From Chiloscyllium plagiosum (Eukaryota), in contig NC_057749.1 in NCBI RefSeq assembly GCF_004010195.1, forward strand, positions 13,390,543 through 13,454,542: a stretch of 64,000 nt of DNA. The letters are read 5' to 3'. The notes beneath the pieces are model-generated. The model saw only the letters and a list, made by a program, of their open reading frames with translations, searched no databases and was not told the DNA's origin. Positions 29,028 through 56,893 of this stretch are shown piece by piece. The first letter of the stretch is position 1; the number at the start of each line of letters is the position of its first letter. The position numbers were made by a program, and so were the translations under genes.

Positions 29028-29179
29028 GACAGTAAGGACTGCGGATGCTGGAAGTCAGAGTCAATAGATGTGAAGCTGGAAAAGCACAGCAAGTCAGACA
29101 GCATCCGAGGAGCAGAAAAGTCAACAGTTTGGGTCAAAACGTTGACCTTCCTGCTCCTCAGATGCTGTCTGACCCGCTA
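29028..29179. mobile_element. Fold-back PLE cassette with collapsed centre, 13-bp TSD (1 mismatch)
   Basis: tagttaactctca 29015-29027 / taggtaactctca 29180-29192; inverted arms gtcagacagcatc... / ...gatgctgtctgac. Confidence 0.7.
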
Positions 29180-29826: not shown

Positions 29827-30043
29827 TGTAGAGATGTTGGTGTTGAACTGAGGTGGACAAAGTCAGAAGTCACACCGCACCAGGTTATGGTCCAATAGGT
29901 TTACTTGAAATCACAAACTTTCGGAGCACTGCTCCTTCCTCAGGTGAAGCCATTTTACCTGACAAGGGGGCAACACTCCGAAAGATTGTGATTTCAAATA
30001 AATCCTATTGAACTACAACCTGGTGTCGTGTGACTTCTGACAA
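29827..30043. mobile_element. Fold-back PLE cassette (third family, older copy)
   Basis: arms about 29862-29946 and 29955-30041, degenerate hammerhead cores on both strands, degenerate TSD tctc(c/t)tgaatga; same family as 48279. Confidence 0.75.
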
Positions 30044-30644
30044 TCTCTTGAATGACCTTGCTCTGTTTTGAGGCTACATCCCTTTTGTCCTAGACTCCCA
30101 TCATCAGTGCAAATACCAGAGCTCAGCTGAATCTATGTCGGTGTGTGGTTTGGAAGGGTACTTGGATGTGATGCACCTGCTACCCTCTGTTGCATTCTTA
30201 TTTATCACAAACATACAATTATATTACAAAGCTTGGAAAAATAATTTTATGGGGATTTTTATTTGAAGATAAGACAACATAGATATTATGATATCTAACA
30301 TAGCGGAGACATATTCAACCTCTATGATTTCTATTCTTTTATGACTCAGAATCACGGGAATAATACATCACATCCTGTCTCAAGGTAGTGATTGGCATCA
30401 GTTTAAGGGGGCACCATCTCTCAATCACATCAGAACCCTCTGGTCCTTCTAGCTATTGGAGGCTGTGTGCTTAGGAGTTTCTGTCAATGGCAGTGTTAAG
30501 GGTGTAGCACACTGCATCTTGTAAATGATACTCACTACATCCATGGACTGCCAGAGAGTAATCATATCAGGTGGTGGATGGAAGCCCATCCAACAGGCTA
30601 CTTGTCATGGATGGTGTCAAGTTCCTTGACTGTTGTTGCAACAT

Positions 30645-30958
30645 CGTCGAGAATGTAGCACTGGAAAAGCACAGCATGTCAGGCAGCATCTGAGGAGCAG
30701 GAGAATCGACGTTTCGGGCATAAGCCCTTCATTAGGAATGAGGCTTGTGGGCTGGGGGGCTGAGAGATAAATGGGAGGAGGGTGGGGTTGGGGGGGAGAT
30801 AGCTGATAAAGCGATAGGTAGATGAAGTTGAGGGAGAAGGTGATTGGTCGGGGAGGGTGGAGCAGATAGATGGGAAAAGTGATGGGCAGGTCAGGAGGGC
30901 GATGCCCATGAGGTGTTCTTCCTCCAGGCATCGGGGTCACCCATCCAGGCAAGTGGAG
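30645..30958 (-). mobile_element. Penelope-like element 3' fragment (GIY-YIG C-terminal remnant, 3' UTR, hammerhead-bearing repeat)
   Basis: minus strand cctggaggaagaacacctc (LEEEHL, typical of the PLE endonuclease C-terminus), C-rich UTR, then cCTAATGAagggcttatgcccGAAACGTC. Confidence 0.7.
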
Positions 30959-31567
30959 AATGTTCTGGACTTGGGCAGTTTAGGTGGGGAGAAATTTTGG
31001 GTATTCAGCCCTCAGCACAGAGTACTCAGACTCTGAAATATCCTCATAGCCATGGCATTTATATGGCTGGACCAGTGGTATTTATTGTCAGTGACAACCC
31101 TCAGGAAGCTGATGATCTGGGAGCTGGTGATGCTCATGCTATTGAGTGCCTGAGCTAGTCAGAAGCAGTTAACACAGGGCAATTCAAGGATAGTGAACCT
31201 TGGCTGATCAGTAAGTGTGAGCACAGGCTAAATGGGAAAAGAAAGCACAGGCTACTCAGGGAGAGGGAGACTGGAGTAAGCAGAGACAGATTTACAAAAG
31301 ATTTTGTTTAACAATTTGAATTTTCTGAGCAGCACATGTAGACAAACAGAATGCAACAGATTATGTAATGTATTGATTGTCAGAAGACATTATTAAGACA
31401 CAAAATTGGCAATTTAAATTATAACAACCCCACAGGGAATTGAAATCAAGCACAGGCTTCTCTCTTGAGCCCTATTACTTTCTTGCAATTTATCAAAGAA
31501 AATATAAATGAGCCTCTTCAGATCATTGAGATCTACATAGCGCTTTGTCCCCTGACACCCCCCACGC

Positions 31568-31570
<3 letters not shown>

Positions 31571-31601
<31 letters not shown>
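31571..31601. repeat. (CA)n microsatellite
   Basis: direct reading. Confidence 0.95.
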
Positions 31602-31603
<2 letters not shown>

Positions 31604-33354
31604 CATTTGCAAACAGAAGAGGAACATCACGTCAGCTACAGCACAAACATGGTCAGGGGCACATGGAACTCACCTCAAGTTGTGGGTTCAAGTCCCACTG
31701 CTTTGACCTGAATATGAAGTCAAGGCCAGCAGAGGTTTATTTCTAACTTGTTCATAGCAAGTAGACATCACTGCCCAAGGTTAGCATTTTTTTGCCAATC
31801 ATTCATTGCCCTTGAACTGACTGGTTTGCTATGGCCATTTCAGAGGGCAGGAAGAGTCATATTGCTATGGGTCTGGAGTCACACATAAACTACACGAGGG
31901 AAAGATTTCTTTCCTTGGAGGATGTTAGTGAATCAGATGGATTTCTAAAACCATCAGCAATGATTACATGGTCACTATTACACCAGCTTTTAATTCTGGA
32001 TTTTGTTAAATTCAAACTTCACCATCTATCCTGGTGGGATTTGGATCAACACCAACCTTGACCCTAGCCTAGGCTTCTGGATGATTTAACTGAGTGATAT
32101 TTCCACTACACCACCACCTTCCTACTGCTGTGCTGTGGGACAGAGCTGTCTTTTGGCTGAGATCTTAAATCCAGCGCTCTTGGGTTGGTGTAAAAGATCC
32201 CAGGGGGTTATTCTAAAGGAGAGCCAGGGAGTCCTCCCTAGTTTTCTTGCGAATGTTATCCCTCAATGAACATCACTCAAAACAGATTGCCCAGGAATTT
32301 ACTGTGCACAAATGTAACTGTTGTGCTTTCTGCATACAGCAGTGACCATATTTCAAAAGTACATCGTTAGCTGTAAACTGCCTTTTCTTTCCTTGTACCT
32401 TGTTCAGAGTGGGGTATCCATACAAGCTCTGCTCCCCTATTGCCCAACTCTGCTGAAGATTTAGACAGAATTGCAAGTTGCAGGATTAAACTGCTGAAAG
32501 GGTCGAAATTGCACATTGTGCTTAGTGCTGAGCTGCCCACTACTGTCAGCTTCCTGCTGGTGGGGCTGGCTCCTAACAGCTGCTGGGTACATCTCGGCTT
32601 GAGCCAAACGATTAACTTTATAATTAAATATTTCACTAAGTGTGGAAATGCTTTTAAGCAATAAGAGACAGGCAGGAGTGTAGCAGGTTGGTAATTGATT
32701 TTTATGCAGCTTGTCATCCATTATAACCCATGACAGCACTGCAAATCTGCTACTGCGATTGAGTCAGATCTTCTAGACTTCACAGTCGCAGTTCCAGGGT
32801 TTAGACCAGCAATTCTCAAAGTTTTGCAGCAACGGTGCATTTCACGAGCACGTATCATTGTTTATAAAAGTGGAAGGAAGTTGCATGTATAAAGCACCTT
32901 TCAGGGCCTCAGTTCATCCCAGATTGTTTTCCAGGCAAGAAGACAGGAGTCAGTCAGTTTGTGTAGAGCTAGCTTTCAAAATCAACAATGCAAAGCCCCT
33001 AAGACAGCACCTTCCAAACCCACAACCACAACTACTCTCGAAGGACAAGGGCAGCAGATATGTGGCAACACTGACATCTGCAAGCCACACAATATCCTAA
33101 GTTTTTTTAAAAATTTGTTCCTGAGTTGTGGTATTGCTGTCTGACTTAGCATTTATTGCCTAGCCCTAATTGTCTATTGACTGGCTGGCTAAGGCCAGAG
33201 AGCAGTTAAGAATCAACCACATTGCTGTGTGTCACATGTATGACAGACTGGGTAAAGCTGACAGATTTATTTCCTTCAAGGATAAGTGTCTCCAAAGAGG
33301 TGGGCTTGAGAGGAGGAGAGAGAGGTGGAGAGGATGCTATTTCATTCAGTAATG

Positions 33355-33560
33355 CCCAGGTGGGGGTTAGTTGGCTCAGTCAGCTGGTTTGTGATAAAAT
33401 TTGATGCCAGCAGCATGGATTCAATAGCCAGACAGGCTGAGTTTACCATGAAGGGTTCTCCTTCTCAACCTCTCCCCTCACCTGAAGTATGGTCAGCCTC
33501 AAATTAAACCACCACCAGTTGTCTTTCAAGAGAGAGCAGTCCTATGGTCTGGCAAGACAA
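33355..33560 (+). mobile_element. Unclassified short tRNA-like SINE
   Basis: ttagttggctcag head, ctcaggttaaaccaccacc-like core. Copies at about 20650-20825 (-), 25480-25625 (+), 44330-44462 (-). Confidence 0.55.
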
Positions 33561-34965
33561 TCAGCAGTGATTTCATGGTTGCCATTTGGCTAACCTTTTA
33601 ATTCAAATTTTCCTTTATTGAATTCAAATTTCATCATCTGCTACAATGAGGTTAGAACCCATGTTCCTAAAACATCAATCTGGGTTTCTGGATTACTAGT
33701 CCAGTGATATTACCACTGCTCCACTCCTTCCCATAGCTTCCCCTGACTTGGAAATATATCACTGTTCCTTCATTGTTGCTGGGTCAAACTTCTGCGATTC
33801 CTTTCCTGCAGCATTGTGGGTCTACTGACACCAAATGGACTGCAGTGAATCAGGAAAGGAGCTCACCATCACCTTCTCAAGACATTTAGGGATGGACAAT
33901 GAATGTTGGTCCAGCCAGTCCCCTAAGATTAATAAAAATGATACTGACCAGATACTTGCATCTTTTTAACAGCAATGTTCATTGAAGGATAATTATTAAC
34001 TCATGATACTGGAGGAGAGATTACTCTCCTCTGTTTTCAAATAGTGCCACGGAATCTTTCATAAACTCAGTTTAGCATTTCATTTGACAGATAGCCCCTC
34101 AAACTGTGCAGCTGTCCTTCAGAACTGCATGGAGTGTCAGCCTTGAATTTGTGACAAGATCTCTGAAGTGAGACTTGAGTCTACAACTACCTCAGAGAGG
34201 AGAGAGCCATACCAATTACTAGAGCTAACTTATAACCCGTGTTTGCTTATAGACATTCCTACATGCTAACAAATGAATCAGAAACAGGAAAGAGGCCATT
34301 CGGCCCCTCAAGCATGCATTGCCTTTCAATAAACCACACCTGATCAGATTGTGCCTTCAACTTTACTTTCCTGTCTGTCCTCCAGTACCTACTGACTTCC
34401 TTGTTAGTCCAGAGTCCATATATCTCAGCATTAAAAATATTCCATGACTCAGCCTCCACTGCTCTCTTGGAAAACGAAAATATATTCTCCTCATCCCATC
34501 TTCAGTGGGAGATCCCTTATTTTAATACTGTGTCCTTTGGTTCTAGTCTCTCCCACAAGGCAAAACATCCTCTCAGCATCCATCCTGTCATGTCTTCACA
34601 GGATCTAACTTGTTTCAATGAGATTGCCTCTTATTCTTCAATATCCAATGGATACATTCAGTCCTACCTTCACTTAAGAGCTAAACCCTTCATCTCAGGA
34701 AAAAGTCAAGTGAGCGTTTTCTGAACAGTTTCTAATACAATTATTCTCTTTCTGAAATAATGAGATCAAAAACTGCACGCAGTACTCTAGATGTGTTCTC
34801 AGCAATGCCCTGTACAACAGCCATATTTTTATATTCCATTCCCCCTGTAATAAATGACAACATTCCATTTGTCATTCCCAATTTTCATCACCTGACTATT
34901 AATAGCTATATCTCTGGTCTTTGGGTCCTAAAGTGTGGAAGTTCCCAATAACTACCTACCAAAAT

Positions 34966-35190
34966 GTCAAGAGTGTGGTGCTGGAAGAGCACAGCAGATC
35001 AGGTAGCATCCGAGGAGCAGGAGAATCAACATTCTGGGAATGAGCCCTTCATCAGAAACTTGTCCTGAAGAAGGGCTTATGCCCAAAACGTCAATTCTCC
35101 TGCTCCTTGGATGCTGCCTGACCTGCTGTGCTTTTCCAGCACCACACTCTTGACTCTGACCTCCAGCATCTGCAGTCCTCACATTCTCCT
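34966..35190. mobile_element. Fold-back PLE cassette, 90-bp arms, hammerhead cores on both strands
   Basis: arms 34966-35055 and 35065-35154, then a 36-nt unpaired tail; TSD unclear. Confidence 0.8.
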
Positions 35191-35717
35191 AGTCCTTAAA
35201 ATGGGCCTCTTTGACCCAGCTTTTAACTACTGACACTAATACTTCTGTACATGGCCCAGTGTCTTACTCTGTTTGATAAATCTCCTGTTAACTGTGTCAT
35301 CTGACTATGTTAAAGATGTTATATAAATGCAAACCCTTTTTGACACTGTGGGAAACATCATAAAGTGGCATCCCGAATACTGAATGTTTTTGTACAACTG
35401 AGGCAAGTGAATAAATGAAAGATTTTGCAAAAATAAAAGAACTGCAGGTGCTGGAAATCAGAGACAAAATCAGAAATTCCTGAAAAAGACTCAGCAGGTC
35501 TGGCAGTATTTGAGCAGAGAAAGTAGAGTTAACATTTCGGGTCCAGTGATTTGTGCTTTTATGAAAGACTTTACAGAAGCTGGAAATGGTCTGCACTGAA
35601 TAATGGCTGTTTTTGAGATCCATCCTTATGGCTGAAACAAAGGTAGCTTATAGCTCCAGTAAAGCACTGTGGGGATTTGTCACGCACTGTGTTGACATGC
35701 AATCTTGTCTTTGGTAG

Positions 35718-35906
35718 GCTTGGTCAGGAAGGGACTGTGTCAGACCTTGAGATCATCTCGCAGCAGGTGGAGGAGGAGAGCCAGTGCATCGCCCCTGTGC
35801 AACTTGTCAGCTTCGGCTATCGTGACCTGCCCCTGGCTGCACTTGACCTCTCGTTGGCCGGGTCACAGCTACTTTCCAACATGGATGACGACGATCAAAG
35901 AGAGAG
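35718..35906 (+). CDS. TMEM266: TMEM266 coding exon (N-terminal cytoplasmic region), 189 nt, phase 2/2
   Basis: ttggtag|g acceptor and ag|gtgagc donor; translates LGQEGTVSDLEIISQQVEEESQCIAPVQLVSFGYRDLPLAALDLSLAGSQLLSNMDDDDQRE, matching my recollection of vertebrate TMEM266 (EIISQQVDEE...IAPVQLVNFAYRDLPLAA). Confidence 0.93.
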
Positions 35907-36269
35907 GTGAGCAGGTCATCAGATATTTCGGCTCTTTTTTTTTATCTTTGGGAAAAGAAAGCTCTTTAATTTGATATCTTCCTACTGGTCTCAACACTTA
36001 TAGTTGTTCAGTAGAACAGAACTTGAGTATTGCTGGTAGAAAGAGAAATGCTGTTTTCATCAGGACAGATGCAAGAATGCCAAATTTCAAAGGGAGCAAT
36101 AATTTAGACTGCATGAAATAAGGGTGCTGATTATTCCTGGTTACTAATCCACCATCATGCAGCTATCTCTGAGCACAGCTTGCATGGGTCAGTCATGCCT
36201 CTGGCTGAGTTTAGCCTAAAGGTCCCCCCTTCTTAATCCTGACCCTCGACCGAGCTGTAGTGAGTTGAG

Positions 36270-37345: not shown

Positions 37346-38615
37346 ATTTAAAAAAACACCAGTTGTCTATCTCACTTTAATGGGAGAGCAGCCCTATGGT
37401 CTGGTAAGATTGTGGTGACTTCACCATGTCATTATTGAACAGTGAAAGATGCTTCAAGGACTGTGTAGTTCTACTCCTAATTCCCATGTTCATTAAAGCA
37501 AAATAGCTCAGAAGATATCCCTGGCTTCTGTTTATTGAAATTAAAGAGGATAACTTCTATTCTCCAAACTACAGGCAGTAATCCAGCTATTATTCTGAGA
37601 CAAATTATGATTTGATTAATTGCAATTTAAATTGTTGTTGCACTATTACATCTGTGATTAATATTTAACAAGGTGCCACCACGTTGACAATCAATTTTCC
37701 CATGAACAGCAAAGCCCAATGAAGGTTTCCTTCCTTCTGCTAGTTACTGAGCATTGCCTGGAAGTGATTAATACAAAATTACTTTGTACCAAAAGTGATT
37801 GAAATAATATCAATTGATTACCTTGAATATTGGATGAGAGCACGATAATTTATTGCAGCTCATGTTTTTACCAAAGATGTCAAAGCAGGTGAAACCTTTT
37901 CAGAAAGTGTCCCAAGTGATCAGGTTGAAAGGAAAGTATTTTGCATTAACATAGCACCCGCCACCTCCCCAGGCTCTCTCAAAACTCCTCACAGCCAATT
38001 GATTTGATACTGAATTTGAAGTAAAGTTGCTGTTATAATGTGGGCAAATGAGGCAGAGATACAGTCAGAGTCATAGAGTCATACAGCACAGAAACAGACC
38101 CTTTGGTCCAACCAGTCCGTGTCAACTATAATCCCAGACAAAACTAGTCCCACCTGCCTGTGTTTGCCCCATATTGCTCCAACGTTCCTTATCCAACTGT
38201 CTTTTAAATGTTCTAAGTGTACCTGCACTTCCCCGGAAGTTCATCCCACAGTCATTTTGTTTCACAGACAGCAAGATTCCACAAATAGTGGTGAGACAGA
38301 TGATGTTATCATCTATTTAAGTGGGGTAGATGCCAGGAAATGCTGGGAAATATTCAATAGGTTAGAAAGCAGCTATGTGAGGGAATGATGTCAGATTTAA
38401 AGTTTCAGGTCAATGACCTTTCATCAGAAGAAGGACATGTCAAAGATGATCAATTTTTAAGAAAATATTCAGGGCCAGAGAGACAAGAGGGACTGAACAT
38501 GGATATAGAGGTCTGTGTTTGGATGGAGAGCAGCAGAGGTTGATTGTTAATAGGGACAATAGTAAAATGCAAAAAAGGAGGTGACAATGAGACAAGAACA
38601 AAAGAGGTTTTTAAG

Positions 38616-39010
38616 GTTTTTGTGAAGATCTGGAGCTTGGGTTGTGGATGAGGTAGTTGATTAGCTCACCAAGCTGCTGGTTTATCATGCAGACGTTTCA
38701 TTACCGCGCTAGGTAACATCATCAGGGTGAAGCACTGTCATTCTGTTCTGCTTGGTTTTTATGGAGTCTGGTCTGGTGGGCTGAGTGTCACTTTCCAAAG
38801 TATGACAAAGTAACCATTCTAGGACAAGCTAACCAGACACATGCCGAAGAGTTCTTGGAAACCTGGTTTTCAACCAAAAAGACCATCAACAAACACATAG
38901 AGATAGACCCAGTGTACAAACTGCTGCAGAGAAGACCCGGAATTGAGCACGGTAATGAAACATCTACACGATAACCCAGCAGCTCGGTGAGCTAACCAAC
39001 TACCTCAACC
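38616..39010. mobile_element. Poseidon-type PLE fragment with inverted termini, GIY-YIG C-terminal remnant and hammerhead
   Basis: 38801-38946 (+) reads YDKVTILGQANQTHAEEFLETWFSTKKTINKHIEIDPVYKLL; inverted arms about 38649-38710 and 38946-39007. Confidence 0.75.
38688..38728 (-). ncRNA. Minimal hammerhead ribozyme motif
   Basis: minus strand CUGAUGA-u-guuacc(uagcgc)gguaau-GAAAC-GUC; stem I weak. Confidence 0.6.
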
Positions 39011-40123
39011 AGGCAGAGGCAGGAATGGTTACAACGGAATGTCAAAGGTTATTTTGACTAAGGACTGGAGACTGGGTATAACTCAAAGTAAAGTCAAAGT
39101 ACTATGGATTCTGGAGGTTTGAAAGACAAACAGAAAGGTTTCATTGGGTAAGCAATGGTCTAGTGATTTTAGATTTGGGAATCCAGAGACACAAGTAATG
39201 TTGTGCGGATCTAGGTTCATAATCCAGATGGTGAAATTTGAATTCAATAAAAATCTGGAACCATAAATCTAATGGTGACTGTGAAATTGTTGTCAATTTT
39301 TAAATTCTTTGATGGGATGAGGATGTCATTGGCTGGGCCAGCATTTATTGCCCATCCCAAATTGTCCAGAGGGCAGTTAAGAGTCAATCACATTGCTGTG
39401 GGTCTGGAGTCACATCTAGGCCAGACTGGGTAAGGTCAGCAGTTTCCTTCCCTGAAGGACATCAGTGGGCCAAATGGGTTTTTCCAACAATTGTCATTAA
39501 AAACCCATCTGATTCACTAATGCTCTTTAAGGAAGGAAAAACTGTGGTCCTTACTTGGCCTACGTGTGACTCCACACCAACAGCAAGGAGCCTAACTCTT
39601 AACTGCCCCCTGAAATGGCCAAGCAAACCACTGAGTTGTCTCAACCACTACAAAGTCTCAAAATAGGAATGAAAGCAGATGGATCAGCTGATGTCAAATA
39701 GGCAACAGAAAAAATAAAAGGCAAATGCACCCTTGTCAATTATTAAAGCCCACCTTACTGGGGACTAGTGCCAAAATTGGGAGTGCTCGCTTACAGAATA
39801 TTCAAGTAGCAATGTGACATTTGTCCAGAGGAGTGTAAGTTGAAAAGCCTCAACAACAAAACTCTCTTTTCAACTATATTCTGCATTTATGAATGGCTGT
39901 ACATATGAAGGAAAGCCAACATCAGTTTATTAAATATAGCATACTCCAGCTAATATGTACAACGTGGTTAATATAGCACATATAATGCAGTCCCATGTAT
40001 CCAATGCAACAATACAAAATGAAACAACAGAAATTGCTGGAAAAACCCAGCAGGTCTGGCAGCATGTGTTGAGAGAAATCAGAGTTAACGTTTTGGTTCC
40101 AATTACCCATCTTCAGAACGATA

Positions 40124-40428
40124 TTAGATTAATTACAGAGTGGAAACAGGCCCTTCGGCCCAACAAGTCCAAACCGCCCCGCTGAAGCGCAACCCACCCA
40201 TACTCCTACATCTACCCCTTACCTAACACTACGGGCAATTTAGCATGGCCAATTCACCTAACCTGCACATCTTTGGACTGTGGGAGGAAACCGGAGCACC
40301 CGGAGGAAACCCACACAGACACGGGGAGAACGTGCAAACTCCACACAGTCAGTCGCCTGAGGCGGGAATTGAACCCGGGTCTCTGGCACTGTGAGGCAGC
40401 AGTGCTAACCGCTGTGCCACCGTGCCAC
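40124..40428 (-). mobile_element. HE1-type SINE, young full-length copy
   Basis: close reverse complement of 61088-61402. Confidence 0.9.
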
Positions 40429-41002
40429 CTGTAACTTTATTTCTATGAAATAGAAATAAAGTTACAGGTACAAAATGAATGTTTGGGCAAGACTTTAATC
40501 TTCACTTTATCTGGTAGGAGGATTATCCTCCTCACCACGTTGAAAGGGTCCAGAAAGGATTGACAAGGATGTTGCCAGGGTTGGCCTTCAGCTATAGGGA
40601 GAGGCTGAATAGGGTGGGAGCATTTTTCCTGGTGTGTCGGAGGCTGAGGGGTGGCCTTATAAAATCATGAGAGACATGGATAGCATGAATAGCCAAGGTC
40701 TTTTTCCCAGAGTAGGGGAGTCCAAAACAAGGGGGCATAGGTTTAGGGTAAGAGGGGAAAGATATAAAAAAAAGACCTAAAGGGTAGGTTTTACATACAG
40801 ATGGTGTTGCATGATGGAATGAGCTGCCAGAGGAAGTGGTGGAGGCTGATACAATTACAGCATTTAAAAGGTATCTGGATGGATACAAAAATAGGAAAGG
40901 ATAAGAGGGATATGGGCCAAATGCTGACAAATGGAACTAGGTGAATTTAGGATATCTGGTCGGCATGGACGAGTTGGACCAAAGATCTGTTTCATTGCAA
41001 TA

Positions 41003-43146: not shown

Positions 43147-44757
43147 CTGGTTAGAGTCCATGTACCATCCATGTGTCAATAAAGCATAACTTGGTGACAG
43201 GATATCAGCCTCTATGGAGTTATCTCACAACAGCTCACCCCTGTGCTTTCCCAATGTCTCATGAAATGGAACCATCGACCATAATGGATTTTGATCTCAT
43301 CTTCCAGAGCATTCAAGCCCTCTCCTCCTTCAGCACACTTCACCACTCCCGCCCCTCTACCCAATGCCTCATGTTCACTCTGGGGTTGTCAAATGGGGTC
43401 CCCCACACCTCAGCATGGTTGCTGAAGTGACCAAATGATTGGCCTGTTCATTGTGAAACCTCGACTGATTGTGCTCCTGGCAAACACCTTGAGGCACATT
43501 ACAGGCAGGGAGGACTAATGTAAGTGCAAGTCATCATTGCTGGTGCCAAATGCCTCTAGCAGTTACCTAAGCTGAAACAAAGCTCTAGGTGGATCTCATG
43601 GGGTCTGGGTTCACTGGTTAAGAATGGCACTAGATTTGTGGACAACACAACAATAGATGGTGAGGATGGCACAAAGAATCCATAGAGGGATATAGACAGA
43701 TTAAGTGAGTGGGCAAAAACCTGACAGATGGAATATAATGTGGGTGGCATGGTGGCTCAGGGGTTAACACTGCTGCCTTACAGCACCAGGGATCTGGATT
43801 CGATTCTAACCTCAGGCAACTGTCCATGTAGAGTTTGCACATTCTCCCTACGTCTGCATGGGTTTCCTCCAGGTACTCCAATTTCGTCCCGCAATCCAAA
43901 GACGTGTAGGTCAGGTGGATTAGCCATGCTAATTTGCCTGTGGTGTCCGGGGATGTGCAGGCTAGATGGATTAGCCATGGGAAATGTGGGTTAACAGGGT
44001 TGGGATGAGCTGGCTTCTTACTGCTGTTGTTTTTATTGATTTGCTGAGGAGTCAATTTAAAAAGAAATAGCTGACTTCATTCTCAGTGTGGTGTTGCATT
44101 CCAGAAGTGTAAAGTGGAAGCTGATGTTTGTACTTGACTATAGATTTACAATAAAATCTAAGTGTTTTGATGCCTAGTTCACCAGACAAAGGTAAAGTCA
44201 CCATTCTCTTACAGCACCATAGAACTGTTCTCTTAGACAGTCATACAGCACGGAAACAGACTCTTCAGCCTGACCAATCGAAGCCGACCATAATCCCAAA
44301 CTAAACAATCCCACCTGCTTGCTCCTGGACAGAAAGACGATCACCATGCTTTGGGTGAAGGGAGAGTCCTTCATGGTAACCTCAGGCTGTTGAATCCATG
44401 CTGTGGTAACATATTGTATCACAAACCAGCTGTCCAGCCAAGTAAGGCAGCTAACCCCCACCTAGACATCACCTTATGAAATAGCATCCTCTCTATCTCT
44501 CTCTCCTCCTCTCAAGCCCACCACTTTGGAGACACTTCTTCAACTTTTAAAGTCTCATTATGTGGCTCAGTGTAAAATTTTGTTGATAGTCCTCCTGTTT
44601 AACATATTGGGATGTTTCACAATGTTAAATGTTTAAACAAAATGCAAGTTAGTGTTGAACCAGGGCTTGCCAGTTTGGATAGTAAATCCATTCAAGGAGC
44701 TTCTCTATTTGTTAAGCTCTACCCTTTGGACTGCTCAGCTGTGTCCTTTAAACATCC

Positions 44758-44964
44758 TTGAGGAGAAAGTGAGGTCTGCAGATGCTGGAGATCAGAGCTG
44801 AAAATGTGTTGCTGGAAAAGCGCAGCAGGTCAGGCAGCATCCAGGGAACAGGAGAATCGAGTTTTCGGGCATTCCTGAAGAAGGGCTTATGCCCGAAACG
44901 TCAATTCTCCTGTTCCCTGGATGCTGCCTGACCTGCTGCGCTTTTCCAGCAACACATTTTCAGC
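44758..44964. mobile_element. Young fold-back PLE cassette with 14-bp TSD
   Basis: tcctttaaacatcc at 44744-44757 and 44965-44978; arms 44795-44872 and 44889-44966; central CTGAAGAagggcttatgcccGAAACGTC. Confidence 0.85.
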
Positions 44965-46584
44965 TCCTTTAAACATCCCTCCACTGGATTATTTGTATCA
45001 CCGAAAGTATTTGATTATCAACGTCATTCCTGCCCCATTCCCTGATATCTATCCAACTCATTTAGAAAGAGTTAAGTTGTCTCAGACTCCGCTGTTTAGA
45101 CTGCACATCAAATTCATACATAGATTCCTACATTTGAGGTGAGCTAATTATAAACTTACACCTTCCATTTCATAGCATGGGCGAGACACGTTGCAACTGC
45201 ATCATCTGGATCGCTCAACAACTTAATGGCTTCAATCGTGACTGTTCAAAGGTTCAGCAGAAGCAAGTTCTGATTTCATCATAACTTAAAGCCCCAGATC
45301 CACTTGTATCAACCTTCACTACACCCTCCCAAATGCTCAGCCCACTTGGAAGGCCCTTCAAATCAGCAATGCAGCATGCCATTCAGCCCCTCTGGTTTGC
45401 TCTGCCATTCAATAAGATCATGGCGGATCAGATTGTATCGTCAACTGCACCTTCCTGCCGACCACTTTGAATCCCTTGTATGTCAAATATCTATTGGTCT
45501 CTGCCACTCTGGGCAGCACCACAACTGGGTGAAGCAATGAACATTTGTATGTTGCAGTACAATGTCACTACAGCTGCCTATATTAAAAATGGCATTGCCA
45601 CTCTTAATGATGCTGGGCAGCATGATGGCTTAGTGGTTAGCACTGCTGCCTCACAGTTCTAGGGACCTGGGTTTGATTCCAGGCTCGGGCGTCTGTTTGT
45701 TGGAGTTTGCACATTCTCCCCGTGTCTGCGTGGGTGCTCTGGCTTCTCTTACAGTCCAAAGATGTACAGGTCAGGTGGATTGGCCTTGCTAAATTGACCG
45801 TATTGCCCTTGGATGTGAGGGCTAAGTGGGTTAGCCATGAGAAATGCAGGTATACAGGGAAAGAGGAGGGTCTGGTGGATGCTGTACAGAGGGTCTGTGT
45901 CAACATCAATGGGTCTAATGACCTGTTTCTAAACTGTAGGGTTTCTATGATTCTACCCATCTTAAAGATGGCACCATTCACATGCCACAGGCTGAAAATG
46001 AGCTCCGAGGTATTACCAGAAAACTAGGACACATTTGGTTTTCCACTGAGATCCTATTTTGTTTGTTACTGAGTCCTACCTGATGCTCCTTGTTTTAGTG
46101 CAAGATTCCTATGATCATTAAGATATGGTGTTAAATGAGGATATTGGGAAAAGCAACAGATGAAATAAGTGAATACAATATTTCATTGCTTGAGGCCTAC
46201 ACTGAAATCCAGTCCTAACTCTAGTGAGGCTCAGAACAGTTCTGTCTGTCATCACACATTTCCACATCAAACTATATGGATGCAGTGATCTTGAATTTCA
46301 GCCCGCATTGGACAGATGCACACCAGAAAAGTAATCACATGGAAAATGTAAGGTAATTCAGAATAGTCAGCATGGATTTGTTAAGGGAAAATCATGTTGA
46401 ACTAACTTGCTGGAGGTTTTTGAACAGGTAACCGAGAGAGTTGATGAGAGCAGTGCTGTTGATGCGATGTACATGAATTTTCAAAAGACATACAGTACTG
46501 TGCCATATAATAGACTTGCAAGGAAAGTGATAGGTCATGGAATAAAAGGGATAGTAGCAATGTGGATACAAAATTGACCACTTT

Positions 46585-48165
46585 TAGAACATAGAATATA
46601 GAACAGTACAGCACAGTACAGGCTCTTTGGTCCTCGATGCTTTGTCAACATTTTATCCTGCTCTAAAATCAAACTAACCTATATTTTACTATCATCAATG
46701 TGCCTATCCAAAAATCGCTTAAATGTACCAAATGTATCTGACTCTTCCACCACTGCTGGCAGTACATTCCAGGCACCCACCACTCTCTGTGTAAATAACC
46801 TACTTCTGTCATCTCCCTTAAATATTCCTGCAATCACCTTAAAATTATACCCCCTTATGATAGTCATTTCTGTCCTGGGAAAAAGTCTCTGGCTATCCAC
46901 TCAACCTATGTCTCTCATCATCTTGTACACCCCAATCAAGTCACCTCTCATCCTTCTTCTCTCAAATGAAAAAGCCTTATCTCCCCCAACCTTTCTTCAT
47001 AAGACATGCCCTCCAGTCCAGGCAGCATCCTGGTAAATCTCCTCTGCACCCTCTCCAAAGTTTCCACATCCTTACTATAATGAGGTGACCAGAACTGAAC
47101 ACAATATTCCAACTGTGGTCGAACCAGGGCTTTATAGAGCTGCAACATAACCTCGCAGCTTTTAAACTCAATCCCCTACTAATGAAAGCCAACACACCAT
47201 ACACCGCCTTATCAATCCTATCAACTTGGGTGGAAACTTTCAGGGATCTATGGATGTGAACCCTAAGATCCCTCTGTTTCTCCACACTGCCAAGAATCCT
47301 GCCTTCAACCCTGTATTCTGCATTCACATTCGACCTTTCAAAATAAATCACTTCACACTTTCTCAGGTTGAACTCCATCAGCCGCTTCTCAGCCCAGCTC
47401 TGCATCCTGTCAATGTCCCATTGCAACCTACAACAGTCCTCCACACTATCCGCAACTTCACCAACCTTCGTGCCATCGGCAAACTTACTAACGCACCCTC
47501 CCACTTCCTCATCCAAGTCATTTATAAAAATCACAAAGAGCAGTGGTCCCAGAACAGATTTCTGTGGAACACCACTGGCCACCGAGCTCCAGACAGAGTA
47601 CTTTCCATCTATCACTACCCTCTGTCTTCTATGGGCCAGCCAATTATGTATCCAGACTTTCAAATTTCCCTGTATCCCATGCTTCCTTACTTTCTGAATG
47701 AGCCTACCATGGGGAACCTTATCAAACACCTTGCTAAAATCCATATACACCACATCCATTGCTCTATCTTCATCAAAGTGTTTTATCACATCCTCAAAGA
47801 ATTCAATGAGGCTTGCGAGGCATGACCTGCCTCTCACAAAGCCATGGTGACTATTTCTAATCAAGCTATGCTTTTCCAAATAATCATAAATCCTGTCTCT
47901 CAGAATCCTCTCCAATAATTTGCTCAGCACTGACTTAAGACTGATTGGTCTCTAATTCCCAGGGTTATCCTTATTCTCTTTCTTGAACAAGGGAATAACA
48001 TTTGCCACCCTCCAATCATCTGGTACTACTTCAGTGGACAGTGAGGATACAAAGATCATCGCCAAAGGCACAGCAATCTCTTCACTCACTTTCCATAGAA
48101 ACCTTGGGTATATCCCATCTGGCCCAGGGGCCTTATCTATTCTTATGTTTTTCAAAATTTCAAGC
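46585..48165 (-). mobile_element. CR1/HER1 LINE fragment containing the RT domain
   Basis: 317-aa ORF 46977-47930 with YMDFSKVFDKVPH, GVPQKSVLGP, FADGTK; frameshifted at both ends; agaacatagaat tail. Confidence 0.93.
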
Positions 48166-48278
48166 ATATTCTTACCAACTTCTTCAGAGATGTTATTACA
48201 ACTGGAGCAGGTGGGATTTGAACCCAGGCCGTCGAGCTCCAAAGTAGCAGCATTACTGCAGTGATTGTAAGAATGTCA

Positions 48279-48482
48279 TTAAAAATCACACAACACCAGG
48301 TTATAGTCCAACAGGTTTAATTGGAAGCACACTAGCTTTCGGAGCGACGCTCCTTATCACCTGATGAAGGAGCGTCGCTCCGAAAGTTAGTGTGCTTCCA
48401 ATTAAACCTGTTGGACTATAACCTGATGTTGTGTGATTTTTAACTTTGTACACCCCAGTCCAACACCGGCATCTCCAAATCA
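48279..48482. mobile_element. Young fold-back PLE cassette with 13-bp TSD
   Basis: tgtaagaatgtca at 48266-48278 and 48483-48495; 77-bp arms 48279-48355 and 48367-48443 with 2 mismatches. Confidence 0.88.
48358..48392 (+). ncRNA. Minimal type I hammerhead ribozyme motif
   Basis: cac-CUGAUGA-a-ggagc(guc)gcucc-GAAAG-UUA-gug; the opposite arm preserves the probable ancestral GAAAGCUA (palindromic AGCU stem III). Confidence 0.65.
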
Positions 48483-48670
48483 TGTAAGAATGTCAGCCAG
48501 GTAGACCTCATAGAATATGAGTTCACTGAATGGGGCTATTAATCTGGTCCAATCAGGGAGCCCTGGCTGACAGATATAAAGAGGAATGTCAGAGGTTCAG
48601 TTCACTCTGAGAGCTGGCTTCATATGCAAATAAAGGGTGACTTGATCACAGGATACCGGCCTCTGTGATG
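48483..48670 (+). mobile_element. Short LTR-like element, target of the 48279 cassette
   Basis: starts tgtaag, contains ccaat, gatataaa and aataaa; similar 3' end at about 43175-43230. Confidence 0.5.
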
Positions 48671-50138: not shown

Positions 50139-50293
50139 CTCGAACTGGCTGAAGCCTTGCTGTGGGAGACGGACAGCTGTCTGGCAAGTGGTCCTACTCA
50201 GCGCTGGACTCAACTGCTTCCTGGTAGCGTCCGTGGTCCTGGTTGTCCTCCTGCTAACGCTGGAGCTCCTTATCGATACCAAGTTACTTCAGT
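50139..50293 (+). CDS. TMEM266: TMEM266 coding exon (pre-S1 and S1), 155 nt
   Basis: cctcccag|c acceptor and t|gtgagt donor; SNWLKPCCGRRTAVWQVVLLSAGLNCFLVASVVLVVLLLTLELLIDTKLLQ; phase fits the previous exon (AG+C=Ser). Confidence 0.96.
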
Positions 50294-50393
50294 GTGAGTA
50301 CAGTATGACCTTACCCGCTCAACCTTCCCTTCTCCAATGCGGCCTGTTCAGTCGTTTCTTGGTAGTCATCATCCCTTTTCTCTCTTGTTGAAG

Positions 50394-50467
50394 TTACCAG
50401 TGCATTCCAGTTTGCGGGGATCATTCACTGGATAAGTCTTGTCATCCTCTCTGTTTTCTTCACTGAG
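50394..50467 (+). CDS. TMEM266: TMEM266 coding exon (S2), 74 nt
   Basis: polypyrimidine tract...gaag|tt acceptor and gag|gtaagc donor; FTSAFQFAGIIHWISLVILSVFFTE (T+TT=Phe); absent from the ORF track. Confidence 0.96.
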
Positions 50468-51917
50468 GTAAGCCGTTGCTATTTGTTAAAAAGCGTTTCA
50501 TATTTGCTAATGACTGTGCAATGCTATTTACTATCTCTCCTGTGGCACTACTCATATTAAGATAGCAGATGTACTGATTTGGTACACCATTCATTTGCCA
50601 GTTGAACATACTGGCTTCATCACACGGCTGGAAAGGGACTAAAGGGCCAGTTGCTAAACTGGTTGATGATAGAACAATAGGAAAGTAAATTGTGGGGAGG
50701 ATGTAAAAAGGCTATAAACGAATGTAAATAAGTTAAGGGAGGGGCATTGCTCAATTGCCACTCAACCACCACATCCCACTATAATGTACGATTAATTGAA
50801 CTCTACCAGTATACATTGATGCTTACTCTACTGTTAGCTGGCCAATCTCTAAATGTATGCCAATGTTACCCTCCTACATCATGAACTTTAATCTTCTATA
50901 ACAATCTTTAATGTGGCTCCTTACCAAATGCCATCTGGAAATCTAAGTACAATATATCTACCAGCTCACCTTTATCCACAGCATAAGTCTATCTCAAAGA
51001 ACTGCAATAAATTGGTTGAAATATGATTTCTTTTATAAAGTCCACGTTGACTTTTCCTGATTACCTTGAACTTTTCTTAGTCTCCATCTACAACGCTGGT
51101 GGCTCACCTCTGCCTCACAATGCCAGGGACCCGGGTTTGATTCCACCCTTGGGTGACTGTGTGGAATTTGCACATTCTCACAGTGTATGCATGGGTTCTC
51201 TCTCGGTGCTCTCATTCTTCCCACAGTGCAAAAGAGTGCAGGTTAGGCAGATTGGCCATGGCAAATGTGGGTCTGAGTGGAATGCTTTTCAGAGGGTCAG
51301 TGTGGACTTGAATGGCCTGCTTCCAAACAGCAGGGATACTATGATAACATCTCCATCGTGCTCCTGAGGACAGGTGCCAAATTAACTGGCCTGTTGTTTC
51401 ATGCTTTCTGTCTCCCTCCTTTTTTTGAAGTTTATGAATTCAACCCAAAAATGTCCAAGAAACAGGGAGCAAGCAAAAACCACCCAGCAAAATGAACAAT
51501 TGCCCTCACCAAGTCCAGCTATGCAAGGACATATAAGGTGAACTAAGGAGCTTCATTAAGTTTTGTCCCTTTATCAGGGAATAAGCTTCATAGAAACACA
51601 AAGGTTGGAATGGGACATATAGCCCATTGAGCCTGCTCAATCATTCAGTTAGCTAATGGCTGATCACCTAACAACATCATTGTCTTGCACTATCTTCATA
51701 TCCCTTAATGTTGCGAGATTCCTAAATCTGTCAATCTCTGACTTGAACAGACTCAATGACTAAGCTTCTACAGCCTCTGGAATTGAGAATTCCAAAGACT
51801 CACCCTCCTCTGAGTGAAGAAATTCCTCATCATCTCAGTCCTGAATGGTCTGTAGTCATGAGAGTTTGGAAGGATGAAAGAGGATTAGATCGAAATATAT
51901 CAAATTCTAACAGAGCT

Positions 51918-52137
51918 CGGAGAAAGTGAGGACTATAGTGCTGGAAATCAGAGACAAAGAGTGTGGTTCTGGAAAAGCATAGCTGGTCAGGCAGCATCCA
52001 AGGAGCAGGAGAATCGACATTTTGGACATAATACCGAACGTGTTTCGGGAATTTCTAATGAAGGGCTTATGTCCAAAATGTCGATTCTCCTGCTCCTCAG
52101 ATGCTGCCTGACCAGCTATGCTTTTCCAGCACCACAC
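51918..52137. mobile_element. Fold-back PLE cassette with 12-bp TSD, inserted in a CR1 fragment
   Basis: tctaacagagct at 51906-51917 and 52138-52149; arms share variants not seen in the other copies here (catagctggtc/gaccagctatg). Confidence 0.85.
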
Positions 52138-52994
52138 TCTAACAGAGCTAGACAGACTAGATGCAGGAGAAGTTGTTTCCCATGCTTGGAGAGTCTAGAA
52201 CCAGAGATTGCAGTTTGAGGATACAAAATAGACCATTTCGGACTGAGGTGAGGAAAGATTTCTTCACTTAGACGGTGGTCAACCTGAGGAATTTGCTACC
52301 ACAGGAGGCTGGGTTACTAAGTATATTCAAACAAGAGCTCGATAAATTGTTAGATATTAAAGGCATCAAGAGATTTGGAGAGAAACTGGGAATTGAGCAC
52401 TGAGAGAGAGGATCAGCAATAATCAAATTAAATGGTGGAGGAGCTTTGAAAGGTCAAAGAGCCTACTCCTGCTCCTTTCTATGTTTATAAATAGCTTGTC
52501 CACTCTACATAAGCCAAGATCAGGAGTCTCTATGGAGAATATTTAGGCTCAGTGCCCATCCCAGTGAATTCAGTTTATACACTTTGTATATGGCTGTTGA
52601 TTGGAACTGCAGGATTGAACAAACTTCGGGGTAACTTAGCATTTTCACTCACCCTGCTGGTTGAAAATGGTAATGTCACACCGAGGCCCAGTGGGCCATA
52701 ACAGGCTGAGCTGTACACCACAGCCATCTCTCCCCACACCTGATCGGGAAATGCTTTGGGGTTAAAATCGTTGAACTGCATTGTGGCCTCCTGACACTTA
52801 ACGACCTTGTCATGGAGTAGGCTATTTAACTTCTGGTCAATATGACAGAATTTCCTTTCCTCCCCAGAACATAACTCAGAAAAGTCAGAACGTTTATGTC
52901 AGGGAACTGCTCAAAAAAACAGACAGCGCATGTATGCTGTGTAGGTCATGATGCACGGAAAGGCTAAGTCTCTGTTGTGTTCTCTCTCTATCAG

Positions 52995-53051
52995 ACTGTC
53001 TTCAGGATTGTGGTACTTGGCATTTGGGACTATATTGAGAACAAACTGGAG
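52995..53051 (+). CDS. TMEM266: TMEM266 coding exon (S2-S3 linker), 57 nt
   Basis: tctctctctatcag|act acceptor and gag|gtgagt donor; TVFRIVVLGIWDYIENKLE. Confidence 0.96.
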
Positions 53052-54449
53052 GTGAGTTGTGCATTTACCTCAGTGCACGTTTTTGCATGTGTAGCCATGT
53101 CCAAGGTCTAGAACATCAGAACTAGATCAAATATATTACTCTTCATTGAAATTCTTGCCTCTCAACCTGCACAGAAACCAGTGCTGCGTTGCCTGATCTG
53201 TGAGGAAGGAAAACAGTTCATGAGTTAGCAAAGGGTCTTTTCTGTATCCTCCTTGTACAACAGTTACAAGTGCAGGGAAAGAAACAATTTTATATTGTCA
53301 ACATGCCTATGCTATGGCCATCAGTGGCACCAAAAAATGGAATAAGGTAGGCTATTCAGCCCATCTGATTCATACTGCCACTTGAGTAAACTTTGGCTTA
53401 CCTCTTTGCTCTATATCCTGTTTAAAAACCACCATATGTTTCTTTTTAGATTACTTACAGCGTGGAAACAGGCCCTTTGGCCAAATAAGTCCACACCGAC
53501 CATCCAAAGCACGGACCACCCAGACCCATTTCCCTACACCTAACACTACGGGCAATTTAGCACGGCCAATTCACCTAACGCGCACATTTTTGGAAAGTGG
53601 GAGGAAACCGGAGCACCCAGAGGAAACCCACACAGACACGGGGAGAATGTGCAAACTCCACACACAGAGTCACCTTGAGGTGGGAATTGAACCCGGGTCT
53701 CTGGCACTATGAGGCAGCAGTGCTAACCACTGTGCCACCGTGCTGCCCGTTTTGCTTCAGCTGGAAAATGAGAAAGTCAAACAACTTTTGCTTTCAAGGG
53801 ATTCTTGACTGGGGCAGGGATGGCAGAGAGTATCAGGTTAACATCACAACAAGTAACAACTCACCTGGACCAGTTACAGGAGTTGAGGAGGTTGAAGACA
53901 AATTAATCTGGATGTTTTTATTTTCCCTTTTTGGCCTAGGTTTTTTAAAATACCCTCCTGGGAGATGACATGATAGGTATAAGAAGTGGGAGTGAGTCAT
54001 GAGTACAGTCTATTATCATGGTGTTAGGGCAGGCTCAAAGAGAAAATGGGATCTTTCCCTGTCCATGTATGTACATTTCGCATGTATGTACATTTCATCA
54101 CCAGGTATTTGACCATGTAGCTGGGATTTGACCACTGACCTCAGACTGAGGAAGGTCCCAATCAGAGGTGTAAAGCCAGAGATAGGACTTTGTGCAGATG
54201 GGACTGTTGCATTTTTTGTGTACCACCCCAAACCTTTCACTCACCCAGCAGGAATGGCTAAGTCTAGGATCCAACCCAATCCTGGAACTGATTCCATTGG
54301 AAAAGCAATGTGATTATACATCTCCATTGGGTCGAGCAGCCAATCACGTTTCCATGGAGATGTATGCTGCTGAGTTCTTGCAAGGAAGAACACCATGGAT
54401 ACAAGCAGGAGGAAGGAATAATGACGGAGACGAAGTAACATTTGCCTTT

Positions 54450-54770
54450 ATCACACACGGGAACAGGCATATATACAGAAAAACACACATATGGATTCAC
54501 ATACATACAAGCACACACACAACCATACACACAGGAACAGATATATTCACAGAAAAATGCACACTCACATAAAACACATGCCCAGACTCACACACACATA
54601 TACTCAGAAAAACAACACAGAGGCACAAACGCAAAACTGTATGCATGAAAATGACATACACAGAATCATATAGACTCAGACAAACACACACAAAAGGGCA
54701 GAGATGTACAGATAGAAAAACACGCGTACATGCAAAACACGTGTATAGGAACACACACACACACACACGC
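54450..54770. repeat. CA-rich low-complexity tract ending in (CA)n
   Basis: direct reading. Confidence 0.8.
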
Positions 54771-56657
54771 CTTCCATCCATGTTTGAGTCAAATCTCAAT
54801 CCCATTTCAGAAAGAAAACGATATGATAACGCAGTGTGTTGCCTGTTCTCAAAATAATTCTGTAAGAAATCATTAATAGAAAGCAAGCTATGCTAAGCAG
54901 CCCTGCTGCAATGGTAAATTGGCACTGTGCTCATTAACAATACGTCCAGAGTTACAATTCGTAGTTAACTGAGACTCGCTTGTTGACCCCAGCTTGAAGT
55001 GGTGCATGGGGATAATTATACACCACAGGACATTAAACCGAGTGGCTGTTTCCCTGTTCATTCTTCTCTGCTTAAATGTGTCTCAGTGTAAACACAGCAG
55101 CTTTAACTTAATAATGAAAAGAAAAGCTGCAAAGCCTAGAGATCAGAGTTCAAAACAAGAAAATGCTAGAATTTTTAAAAATTGTTCCTGGGATGTAGGT
55201 GTCACTGTCTGGGCCAGCATTTATTGCCTGCCCCTACTTCCCCTTTAGAAAATCATGTGAGCTGCCTTCTTAAACCGCTACAGTCCATGTGCTGTAGGTA
55301 AATCCATAATACTGCTAGGGAGGGAATTCCAGGATCTTGACCCAGCAACAGTGAAGAAACATTCCCAAGTCAGGATGGTGAGTGGCTTGGAGGGGAATTT
55401 GCAGTAGGTGGCTTTCTCATGTGCCTGCTGCCCTTGTCTTTAACACAAAAGTGGATTGCACATCAGCTTGGGTTTGCTTCCTCTCCCAGCTTGCTTTGTG
55501 GATAGCAGACCATGTAAAAGAAGATGAGCAAAGTATGGGTGTGTCCCTGACTCAGTCTTATACATCTATCCATCCCACGTGTCTATAGCCACCCACTGAC
55601 CCATTTACCCACTCACTCATTTAGGAGGAGGTGGTGGCCTGTTGGTCCAGGTAATTAATATTTTCGGGACCTGGTGTAGATGGAATTTGAATTCACTAAA
55701 AAAATTAGTATCTAATAATGACCATGAGTCCATTGCTCTAGTTTGGTTTGGTTTGGTTTGGTTTTTAGCAGGCTGGCTGTTCACTGAAAGCAGTCATTCA
55801 GTTTGAGGCTGCTGGACCAAGAAACAGCTACTTGGAAGAAAGTTTTCCATGCTGAATCCCTTTGCTGTCCCTCTCTCTCTCTCCCCTGTAAGACTCTGTG
55901 TTTGATTTTTCCTTTTTTGCCAAGGGGTGTTTATGGGAGTTGTTGCAAGCATTTGGAACAGCATCATTAAGTTGAGATAATCTATTGGGTTTTAGGATAG
56001 ACTAAGTTATTTTTTATACTGTTCTCTTTTCGTTCAGTAATCTTGTAAATAAATTCTATTTTATTTAAAACCGAGTGGTTTGACAAACTGCATCACTTCT
56101 GGAATATCCATGCTACACCTGCCTAAAACATCTCGCAAAGTTAGGGTCTGCATTTCTTTCTTGAAATGTTTTGAGGGGGTCTGACCTGATCCATAGCACT
56201 AGCCTACATGTAACTCCATACCCTCAGCAATGTGGTTGACTCTTAAATGCTCTCTGGGCAATTAGGAATGGGCAATAAGTGCTGCCTGGTCAGCAAAGCC
56301 CTCATACCATGAGTGAATACAAAAAAAACCCATGGGCAACCAAACATTCACAATCTCTTTAAAATCCATGGGCATCAATCGCAAGACCCAGGATTTTTTG
56401 CCCATCCTTATTTGCTCTGGAACTGATTGGTTTGTAAGTGCCATTTTAGAGGACAACTAAGATTGCTGAGGGTGTGGAGTCACATGAGGACCAGACCAGG
56501 TAAGAACAGCAGATTTCCTTCTCTAAAGGACATTAGTGAACCAGATGGACTTTTACAACAATTCATCATCATCACCATCATCATCACTGAGACCAGCTGT
56601 CAATTCCAGATTTATAATTTGAATGTCAATTCCACCAGACGCCCTCAGAACATTAAA

Positions 56658-56893
56658 ATAAAAGCAAATTACTACAGATTCTGGTAGTCTGAAAGAAACA
56701 CAGACAATGTTGGAGAAACTCAGCAGGTCTGCTATCATCTGTGAAGGAAGAAGCAGAGTTTTGAATCCGATGTGACTGTTCTTCACAACTGTTCTGAAAG
56801 GGAGTTCATACCAGACTCAGAATATTAACTTTGTTTCTCTCTCCATAGATGCTGCCTGACCTGCTGATTTTCTCCAACATTGTTTGTGTTTGT
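56658..56893. mobile_element. Older fold-back PLE cassette (second family) with 15-bp TSD
   Basis: cctcagaacattaaa at 56643-56657 and 56894-56908; inverted caatgttggagaaa / tttctccaacattg. Confidence 0.75.

Follow-up and report, generated by a model that had tools for sequence, protein, structure and literature searches.

Introduction

Penelope-like elements (PLEs) carry a one-sided tail of 30-40 bp beyond one of their inverted pseudo-long terminal repeats (pLTRs) (PMC8557442, PMC3846280, PMC2377424), as described for Penelope of D. virilis (34-37 bp), for Pen2a of Adineta (31 bp, with a 9-bp target-site duplication (TSD)) and for the Naiads, and a minimal hammerhead ribozyme lies within their repeats (PMC4209133). 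The published accounts ascribe the tail and the palindrome to resolution by the endonuclease or to self-priming on an antisense template, and the origin of the inverted repeats and of the one-sided tail is named an open problem in PMC8557442. In a 2024 study (PMC11167929) the PLE protein PAc (Poseidon of Anolis carolinensis), predicted to act as a dimer, was found to cut and extend both strands of AT-rich targets in vitro from two start sites of reverse transcription that bound the tail; ribozyme cleavage was dispensable, and the later steps were left unvalidated. Here we describe short PLE cassettes in 64 kb of repeat-rich vertebrate DNA from Chiloscyllium plagiosum (contig NC_057749.1; this whole stretch is hereafter the window). 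The cassettes are single PLE insertions, in which two 5'-truncated copies of the terminal repeat are joined head to head inside one TSD, and in our judgement their structure is probably best explained if the two ends of a staggered cut prime at two fixed RNA sites.

Results

Every cassette has one tailed and one tailless arm

Self-comparison of the window recovered in place all eight cassettes named in a first-pass annotation of the sequence, and a search with the cassette arms returned 13 further stretches, namely a ninth cassette that had been missed (13733-13894) and a number of solo copies and fragments. The nine head-to-head cassettes, tabulated here within the window rather than genome-wide and designated by the start of their tail, are ~150-400 bp in size, mostly have no open reading frame (ORF) and occur at a density of 9 per 64 kb (Table 1). 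Their arms form four sequence groups, the families A, B, N and P, of which A and B are related. Read in the sense of the ribozyme, both arms point outward, so that the element 3' ends lie at the flanks and the 5' ends meet centrally, within one TSD.

With the tail defined as the stretch between the last paired position of the arms and the TSD, one tailed and one tailless arm were found in all nine cassettes, for which P is ~0.002 if the arms had picked their ends independently. The one-sided unpaired extension claimed for the eight named cassettes is thus present in each of them and in the ninth, and its likeness to the Penelope tail, pointed out at the same time, agrees with the published anatomy. 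The length, first given as a constant 33-40 nt with cassette 29028 as an exception, is near 32-40 nt in seven of the nine; it is 49 nt in cassette 13733 and 60 nt in cassette 29028, where the extension is long because the tailless arm ends early, and across the cassettes the internal end is more variable than the tail end. In cassette 38616 the tail (38613/16-38644, 29-32 nt) has an uncertain end as no TSD was found, whereas in cassette 35155, where the TSD is not significant, the tail end was fixed by the reads of the family. The overhang of 32-60 nt at one end, the variable TSDs of 11-15 nt and the differing centres do not fit a miniature inverted-repeat transposable element (MITE) or DNA-transposon hairpin.

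TSDs were scored against 595 random end pairs. They are significant at p<=0.004 in six of the nine cassettes, with lengths of 11-15 nt, reach p=0.027 in cassette 29827, where the TSD is weak, and are not significant in 35155 and 38616; the staggered cut first envisaged was of 12-15 nt. Both solo copies tested, one tailless (1126-1202) and one tailed (35427-35560), have a clear TSD of their own, which indicates that each site can be the primary insertion end. A hairpin scan of the window gave 17 peaks, made up of the eight named cassettes, one cross-match between A and B and eight repeats unmatched by PLE arms; no symmetric PLE palindrome was among them, although the scan, at its threshold, also missed cassette 13733 and may have overlooked strongly decayed examples.

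In groups A, N and P, 7-9 nt in the central part of the tail are complementary to a segment that lies 30-48 nt upstream of the internal boundary (tails 35155-35190, 44758-44794, 29028-29064, 48444-48482 and 38613-38644). Fold prediction gave a tail-to-arm stem in several copies, and this stem reached p<0.05 against shuffled tails in 4 of 12 copies, all of family A, while none of the 11 whole-arm folds had a z-score beyond -2. As a lead only, the internal start site would sit in the loop of this predicted stem.

Table 1. Coordinates of the cassettes, solo copies and associated features in the window. The 5' ends are given relative to the predicted ribozyme cut, for the tailed and then the tailless arm.
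Feature	Position	Strand	TSD	Tail	Arms and other details	5' ends (nt)
Cassette 13733, family B	13722-13905		13722-13732 / 13895-13905 (perfect, 11 nt)	13733-13781 (49 nt)	Tailed arm only ~15 nt; tailless arm ~13795-13894	+54 / ~-40
Cassette 29028, family A	29015-29192		29015-29027 / 29180-29192 (12/13)	29028-29087 (60 nt)	29088-29178	~-14 / -7
Cassette 29827, family N	29827-30041		weak, 8/9	29827-29861 (35 nt)	29862-30041; hammerhead motif on both arms	~-34 / -34 (tentative; own arm is the reference)
Cassette 35155, family A	34966-35190		not significant	35155-35190 (36 nt)	34966-35154	-30 / -31
Cassette 38616, family P	38613-39011		none found	~38613-38644	Tailed-arm hammerhead 38692-38725 (-); tailless arm ends at 39011
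GIY-YIG endonuclease C-terminus remnant of PLE	38780-38941	+			Inside the tailless arm of cassette 38616 only
Cassette 44758, family A	44744-44978		44744-44757 / 44965-44978 (14/14)	44758-44794 (37 nt)	44795-44966	-14 / -33
Hammerhead of cassette 44758	44875-44902	+			Motif scan
Cassette 48444, family N	48266-48495		48266-48278 / 48483-48495 (13/13)	48444-48482 (39 nt)	48279-48443	-33 / -23
Hammerhead of cassette 48444	48361-48389	+			Motif scan
Cassette 51918, family A	51906-52149		51906-51917 / 52138-52149 (12/12)	51918-51957 (40 nt)	51958-52140; ~19 nt central filler	-16 / -32
Cassette 56658, family B	56643-56908		56643-56657 / 56894-56908 (15/15; 16/17 extended)	56658-56695 (38 nt)	56696-56891	~-37 / -34
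Solo tailless copy 1126-1202, family A	1111-1217 (with TSD)	-	perfect, 15 nt
Solo tailed copy 35427-35560, family B	35415-35572 (with TSD)	-	12 nt (11/12)
Long solo tailless copy, family A	30646-30936	-			Extends ~200 nt upstream of its own hammerhead (30708-30735)

Ends and joints of family A in reads

Two raw-read runs (X22 and X23) and two contig sets were mapped at 80% likeness to 35056-35205, the right (tailed) arm of the family-A cassette 35155, which gave 179,424 and 174,539 mapped reads for the two runs, respectively. The tail end is sharp, with 26,389 (X22) and 26,081 (X23) loose read ends at 35189-35190 and a flank agreement of 0.33, and the sequences beyond it are AT-rich and unrelated to one another. 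In X22 the depth is ~147,000 at its peak and ~68,000 in the tail, the drop occurring across the internal boundary. This ratio of 0.465 corresponds in a simple coverage model to a tail share of ~0.43-0.45, with a fair range of 0.43-0.5; the true share is probably slightly above the model because clipping in the indel-rich segment 35145-35154 hides tailed reads. Tailed and tailless ends thus occur at ~1:1, and the end-points, whose distribution had been put forward as a check, are not uniform in family-A reads but comprise a sharp tail end and an internal step. A similar pattern was seen in the contig set of a second organism. Judged by the peak depth in 1,934 million letters, and assuming a genome of a few billion bases, the family-A arms in the genome appear to number on the order of 100,000 or more.

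The joints in the reads are dispersed: besides the 15 listed there are 916 more, and the commonest accounts for 361 of 179,424 reads. The second commonest among the joints listed is, in both raw runs, the opposite-strand joint 35063/35154 (187 and 215 reads). Several joints adjoin mismatches of the reference copy, and we do not rely on their exact positions. Dispersed joints bear on the possibility that pre-formed palindromic masters are copied whole, in the manner of MITEs or short interspersed nuclear elements (SINEs), with an asymmetry that is inherited and not made at each insertion. The very high copy number and short length would suit such masters, as would the shared 5' end zone of 10 of the 18 arms (below) and the fact that in the commonest joint listed both arms reach 35063 or beyond. 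However, more than 900 joints of which none exceeds ~0.2% of the mapped reads, and central junctions that differ in all nine cassettes, make this explanation very improbable.

Most arms stop in or just upstream of the hammerhead, and their lengths vary separately

A scan for the minimal type I hammerhead motif gave 10 matches in the window, whereas 30 shuffles gave 0.9 on average, and 7 of the 10 lie within arms or solo copies of groups A, B, N and P, where they are predicted ribozymes; a search of Rfam reported none of them. Of the 18 arms, 15 have their end 7-42 nt upstream of the predicted cut, 10 of them at 30-42 nt, and no arm ends at the cut itself (cassette 38616 was judged by eye), nor does any of the six loose ends listed for each raw run. 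The first-pass expectation that the cDNAs end near the ribozyme is therefore sound as to the neighbourhood, although not as to the cut. Self-cleavage of the hammerhead as the 5' stop is rejected, and since no arm stops at the cut, the template was uncleaved RNA. The stop zone, which we recognised after the fact, lies at the 5' edge of the ribozyme; the 30-42 nt zone may reflect a favoured stopping point or a short transcript that begins there. By eye, the solo copies 9403, 13370, 29650, 40018 and 9890 also have their ends in this 30-42 nt zone, immediately 5' of the ribozyme core.

In four of the nine cassettes it is clearly the tailless arm that extends further 5', in two it is the tailed arm, and in three the arms are level. 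The extra 5' sequence of the tailless arm amounts to 16-19 nt in cassettes 44758 and 51918 and to ~90 nt in cassette 13733, and in cassette 38616 the tailless arm extends into the ORF and holds the endonuclease remnant. The same arm jumps at 38930-38950 from the end of the ORF to the middle of the hammerhead, which is an internal deletion with respect to the tailed arm.

Arm lengths speak to two self-priming schemes. In one, the tail-primed cDNA would fold back, copy itself and stop ~35 nt short of its own start, later central deletions reshaping the loop. This would yield identical arms and short central overlaps, and it agrees with a tailed arm that is longer or level in five of nine cassettes, but a copied arm cannot hold sequence that is absent from the first arm, which is what the tailless arm does in the other four. 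A simple snap-back is thereby disfavoured, unless the centre was later deleted, and tailless solo copies with a TSD would in addition require that copying can genuinely begin at the internal site; we regard this scheme as quite unlikely. In the other, which is the published view, a self-primed hairpin, probably formed on an antisense transcript, is inserted, and trimming by the endonuclease leaves the tail at one end. The hairpin was proposed from the head-to-head palindromes of rotifer PLEs (PMC3846280), with the tail ascribed to endonuclease-mediated resolution (PMC8557442), and it accounts for the strict asymmetry and for arms from a single source. A cut of fixed polarity, however, predicts that the tail is always on the loop-bearing or always on the copied arm, whereas we observed four against two with three level; solo copies of both kinds have TSDs, and the later in vitro work finds target-primed starts at both borders of the tail (PMC11167929). 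We therefore consider the hairpin unlikely here.

At the centres the two arms meet with an overlap of 0-4 nt or a short filler, as expected for end joining, although snap-back would also give overlaps. The ~19-nt filler of cassette 51918 (52032-52050) is similar to short stretches of the element in sense and antisense orientation, like a templated end-joining insert. The arms overlap by at least 45 nt in eight of the nine cassettes, the usual overlap of the cDNAs being 45-100 nt. The remaining arrangement is that of cassette 13733, in which the tail and ~15 nt stand opposite a full inverted arm; it comes near the classical product of twin priming, and the joint 35063/35154 is of a similar class.

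Similarity between the two arms

It had also been claimed that both arms of young copies share variants absent from other copies. Among the seven cassettes compared (38616 and 13733 were left out), the match between the arms clearly exceeds that to the best other copy in three, 44758 (96 vs 89%), 51918 (95 vs 91%) and 48444 (97 vs 81%), but not in 35155 (87 vs 91%), 29028 (83 vs 83%), 56658 (77 vs 79%) and 29827 (83 vs 81%). Four variants of cassette 44758 that are absent from the other copies in the window are present in 31%, 20%, 30% and 39% of the reads; being common alleles genome-wide, they mark a subfamily. The arms of cassette 51918 share seven non-majority letters and differ at three of 70 columns, and three variants common to both are not among the 40 variants listed, beside which there are 172 more, and may be rare, although conversion after the insertion would have the same effect.

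Homogenisation of the arms after insertion, by gene conversion or by template switching in a hairpin, would explain the shared variants and nothing else. Gene conversion in inverted repeats is well established, and in cassette 51918 the arms share their seven letters while the tail differs from other tails at several places. Conversion is nevertheless not pervasive, as the arms of older cassettes are 77-87% identical and no closer than other copies, and the variants of 44758 are explained as subfamily alleles, so that we find this reading rather doubtful. The arm-shared variants thus indicate only that both arms stem from one subfamily, and as evidence on mechanism they are weak because the pattern would be no different with subfamily alleles or with conversion between the arms.

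Relation to PLE proteins and other features of the window

The 54-aa remnant in cassette 38616 has 55 protein matches by HMMER; of 26 scanned, 11 contain GIY-YIG at E<=0.004, two of them above the Pfam cut-off, and one match (P0030) has RVT_1 followed by GIY-YIG. This GIY-YIG remnant supports a tie between group P and the PLE protein. Groups A, B and N are putatively assigned to PLEs by their anatomy. No whole PLE ORF, comprising reverse transcriptase and GIY-YIG endonuclease, is present in the window, and the upstream frame of family A had no match in a word-index protein search. By resemblance, A, B and N may be Neptune-like and P Poseidon-like; these clades are told apart by a Zn-finger-like linker between reverse transcriptase and endonuclease and by reverse-transcriptase phylogeny, and neither a reverse transcriptase nor a linker of these groups is present in the window. 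The named relatives of one peptide of the window are from Chiloscyllium punctatum and Rhincodon typus and, like the appearance of its SINEs, point to a shark; pattern scans of metagenome and viral contigs gave 0 matches.

Isolated hammerhead-like motifs at 38399-38427 (-) and ~13597-13650 (+, by eye) are probably decayed arms of further PLE groups. Outside the cassettes, the open frames 46977-47951 (-, 324 aa) and 27795-28343 (+, 182 aa) match RVT_1 and are presumably remnants of CR1 LINEs (long interspersed nuclear elements). Another abundant, SINE-like repeat forms a head-to-head palindrome at 39367-39612 with 73% arm identity and is unmatched by PLE arms, and a 43-nt near-perfect AT-rich palindrome (40427-40469) directly follows a SINE-like repeat. 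The Rfam matches of the window, to plant and animal microRNA models far under their gathering scores, merely reflect hairpins and were rejected. Assembly gaps (runs of N) lie at 21784-21847 and 23113-23500, and frames listed across the second are artefacts.

Discussion

Strict asymmetry, the 1:1 ratio of ends, solo copies of both kinds and separately varying arm lengths support priming from both ends of the target. With a tail share of about one half, independent choice of the two ends would make about half of the cassettes symmetric, and none of the nine is. In the sequence of events that we propose, a PLE protein, probably a dimer, would cut both strands of AT-rich DNA 11-15 nt apart. The stagger and the 3'-overhang polarity are suggested by the TSDs and the orientation of the arms, and cutting of two strands is known in vitro for the anole PLE. 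The tail-end site would then be used by one 3'-OH and the internal site, ~32-40 nt upstream, by the other, an assignment of one start site to each DNA end to which the asymmetry of all nine cassettes points. Both cDNAs would copy overlapping stretches of uncleaved RNA, and each would stop independently of the other, usually within the hammerhead or a short way upstream of it; these stop positions are what we observe in the arms. The two cDNA 3' ends would presumably be joined through an overlap of 0-4 nt or a short filler, and the gaps filled. Strict asymmetry would follow most simply if a single RNA spanned the two active sites and was read a second time, with displacement of the cDNA made in the first pass; alternatively, an asymmetric dimer could carry two RNAs.

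Several observations weigh against this interpretation. PMC11167929 reports that start sites do not differ between top and bottom strand, which fits random assignment, and a coupling is not demonstrated there. The 1:1 ratio, taken alone, fits independent choice equally well, and the step in depth coincides with the indel-rich and subfamily-variable segment 35145-35154 and is partly alignment clipping. No listed read or contig piece covers both ends of a cassette, so the coupling rests on the nine cassettes of the window, of which two (35155 and 38616) gave no significant TSD against the random end pairs and two have tails of 49 and 60 nt. Later deletions at the palindrome centres could blur the comparison of arm lengths, the protein link to PLEs was found for family P only, and the double reading of one RNA is conjectural. 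Nevertheless, the proposal that both target ends prime at two RNA sites, already made in the first-pass annotation, fits the evidence well, whereas their coupling in one reaction is a step that we infer.

A stronger form of two-ended priming, which we hold only tentatively and think possible rather than probable, is an obligatorily coupled and programmed twin priming, in which one dimer would hold one RNA such that both 3' overhangs left by the dimer's own cut prime at fixed starts flanking the tail-to-arm stem; the same stretch would be copied twice and the cDNAs fused, the hammerhead region acting as a stop zone and not as a cutter. Were this true, the normal PLE cycle would itself give rise directly to the palindromes, without any need for antisense self-priming, and PLEs would be set apart from R2 and L1 by a built-in use of both break ends as primers. 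The copy number in this genome is enough to test the coupling, the polarity of the tail side and the rules of the junctions by counting.

In a term search, a 2026 retrozyme preprint (10.64898/2026.07.22.740005) gave no passage on tails, palindromes or priming. Our literature search, which covered few subscription papers and not the older PLE reviews, found neither a proposal of two-ended priming for PLE palindromes nor a description of these shark cassettes, and the idea may already have been published. As PLE anatomy the tail and the palindromes are ordinary, and the members described here are new, short and very abundant; the mechanistic link is a plausible and testable step beyond the 2024 data, and two-point priming would settle one open question on PLE insertion.

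Comparison with known systems

The cassettes resemble endonuclease-bearing PLEs, as these are described in the sources cited above, in their head-to-head inverted repeats, the tail at one end, the TSD and the minimal type I hammerhead in the repeat. Unlike the published elements they are short, mostly without an ORF and of four groups, and their TSDs of 11-15 nt compare with 8-10 nt in the rotifer examples. With PAc they appear to have in common two start sites that bound the tail, cutting and extension of both strands, AT-rich targets and a dispensable hammerhead cleavage. The main text of PMC11167929, where the words 'inverted' and 'twin' occur in names of reagents only, does not deal with inverted or palindromic insertions and leaves the start sites unassigned with respect to the two DNA ends of a cut.

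The closest likeness of mechanism is to twin priming of L1, in which both target ends prime on the element RNA, at the 3' end and internally, with annealing through short complementarity and a single TSD (PMC2912911). The orientation of the arms and the TSDs match L1-type two-ended joining within one TSD, the priming itself being what we infer for the cassettes. In L1 the pieces produced by twin priming barely overlap. The second site of L1 is variable (PMC2912911), whereas here it lies at a nearly fixed distance of ~35 nt from the first; the overlap of the cDNAs, usually 45-100 nt, results in a palindrome. Taken together, the mechanism appears to be like twin priming but not of the L1 form, with cassette 13733 coming close to the L1 pattern.

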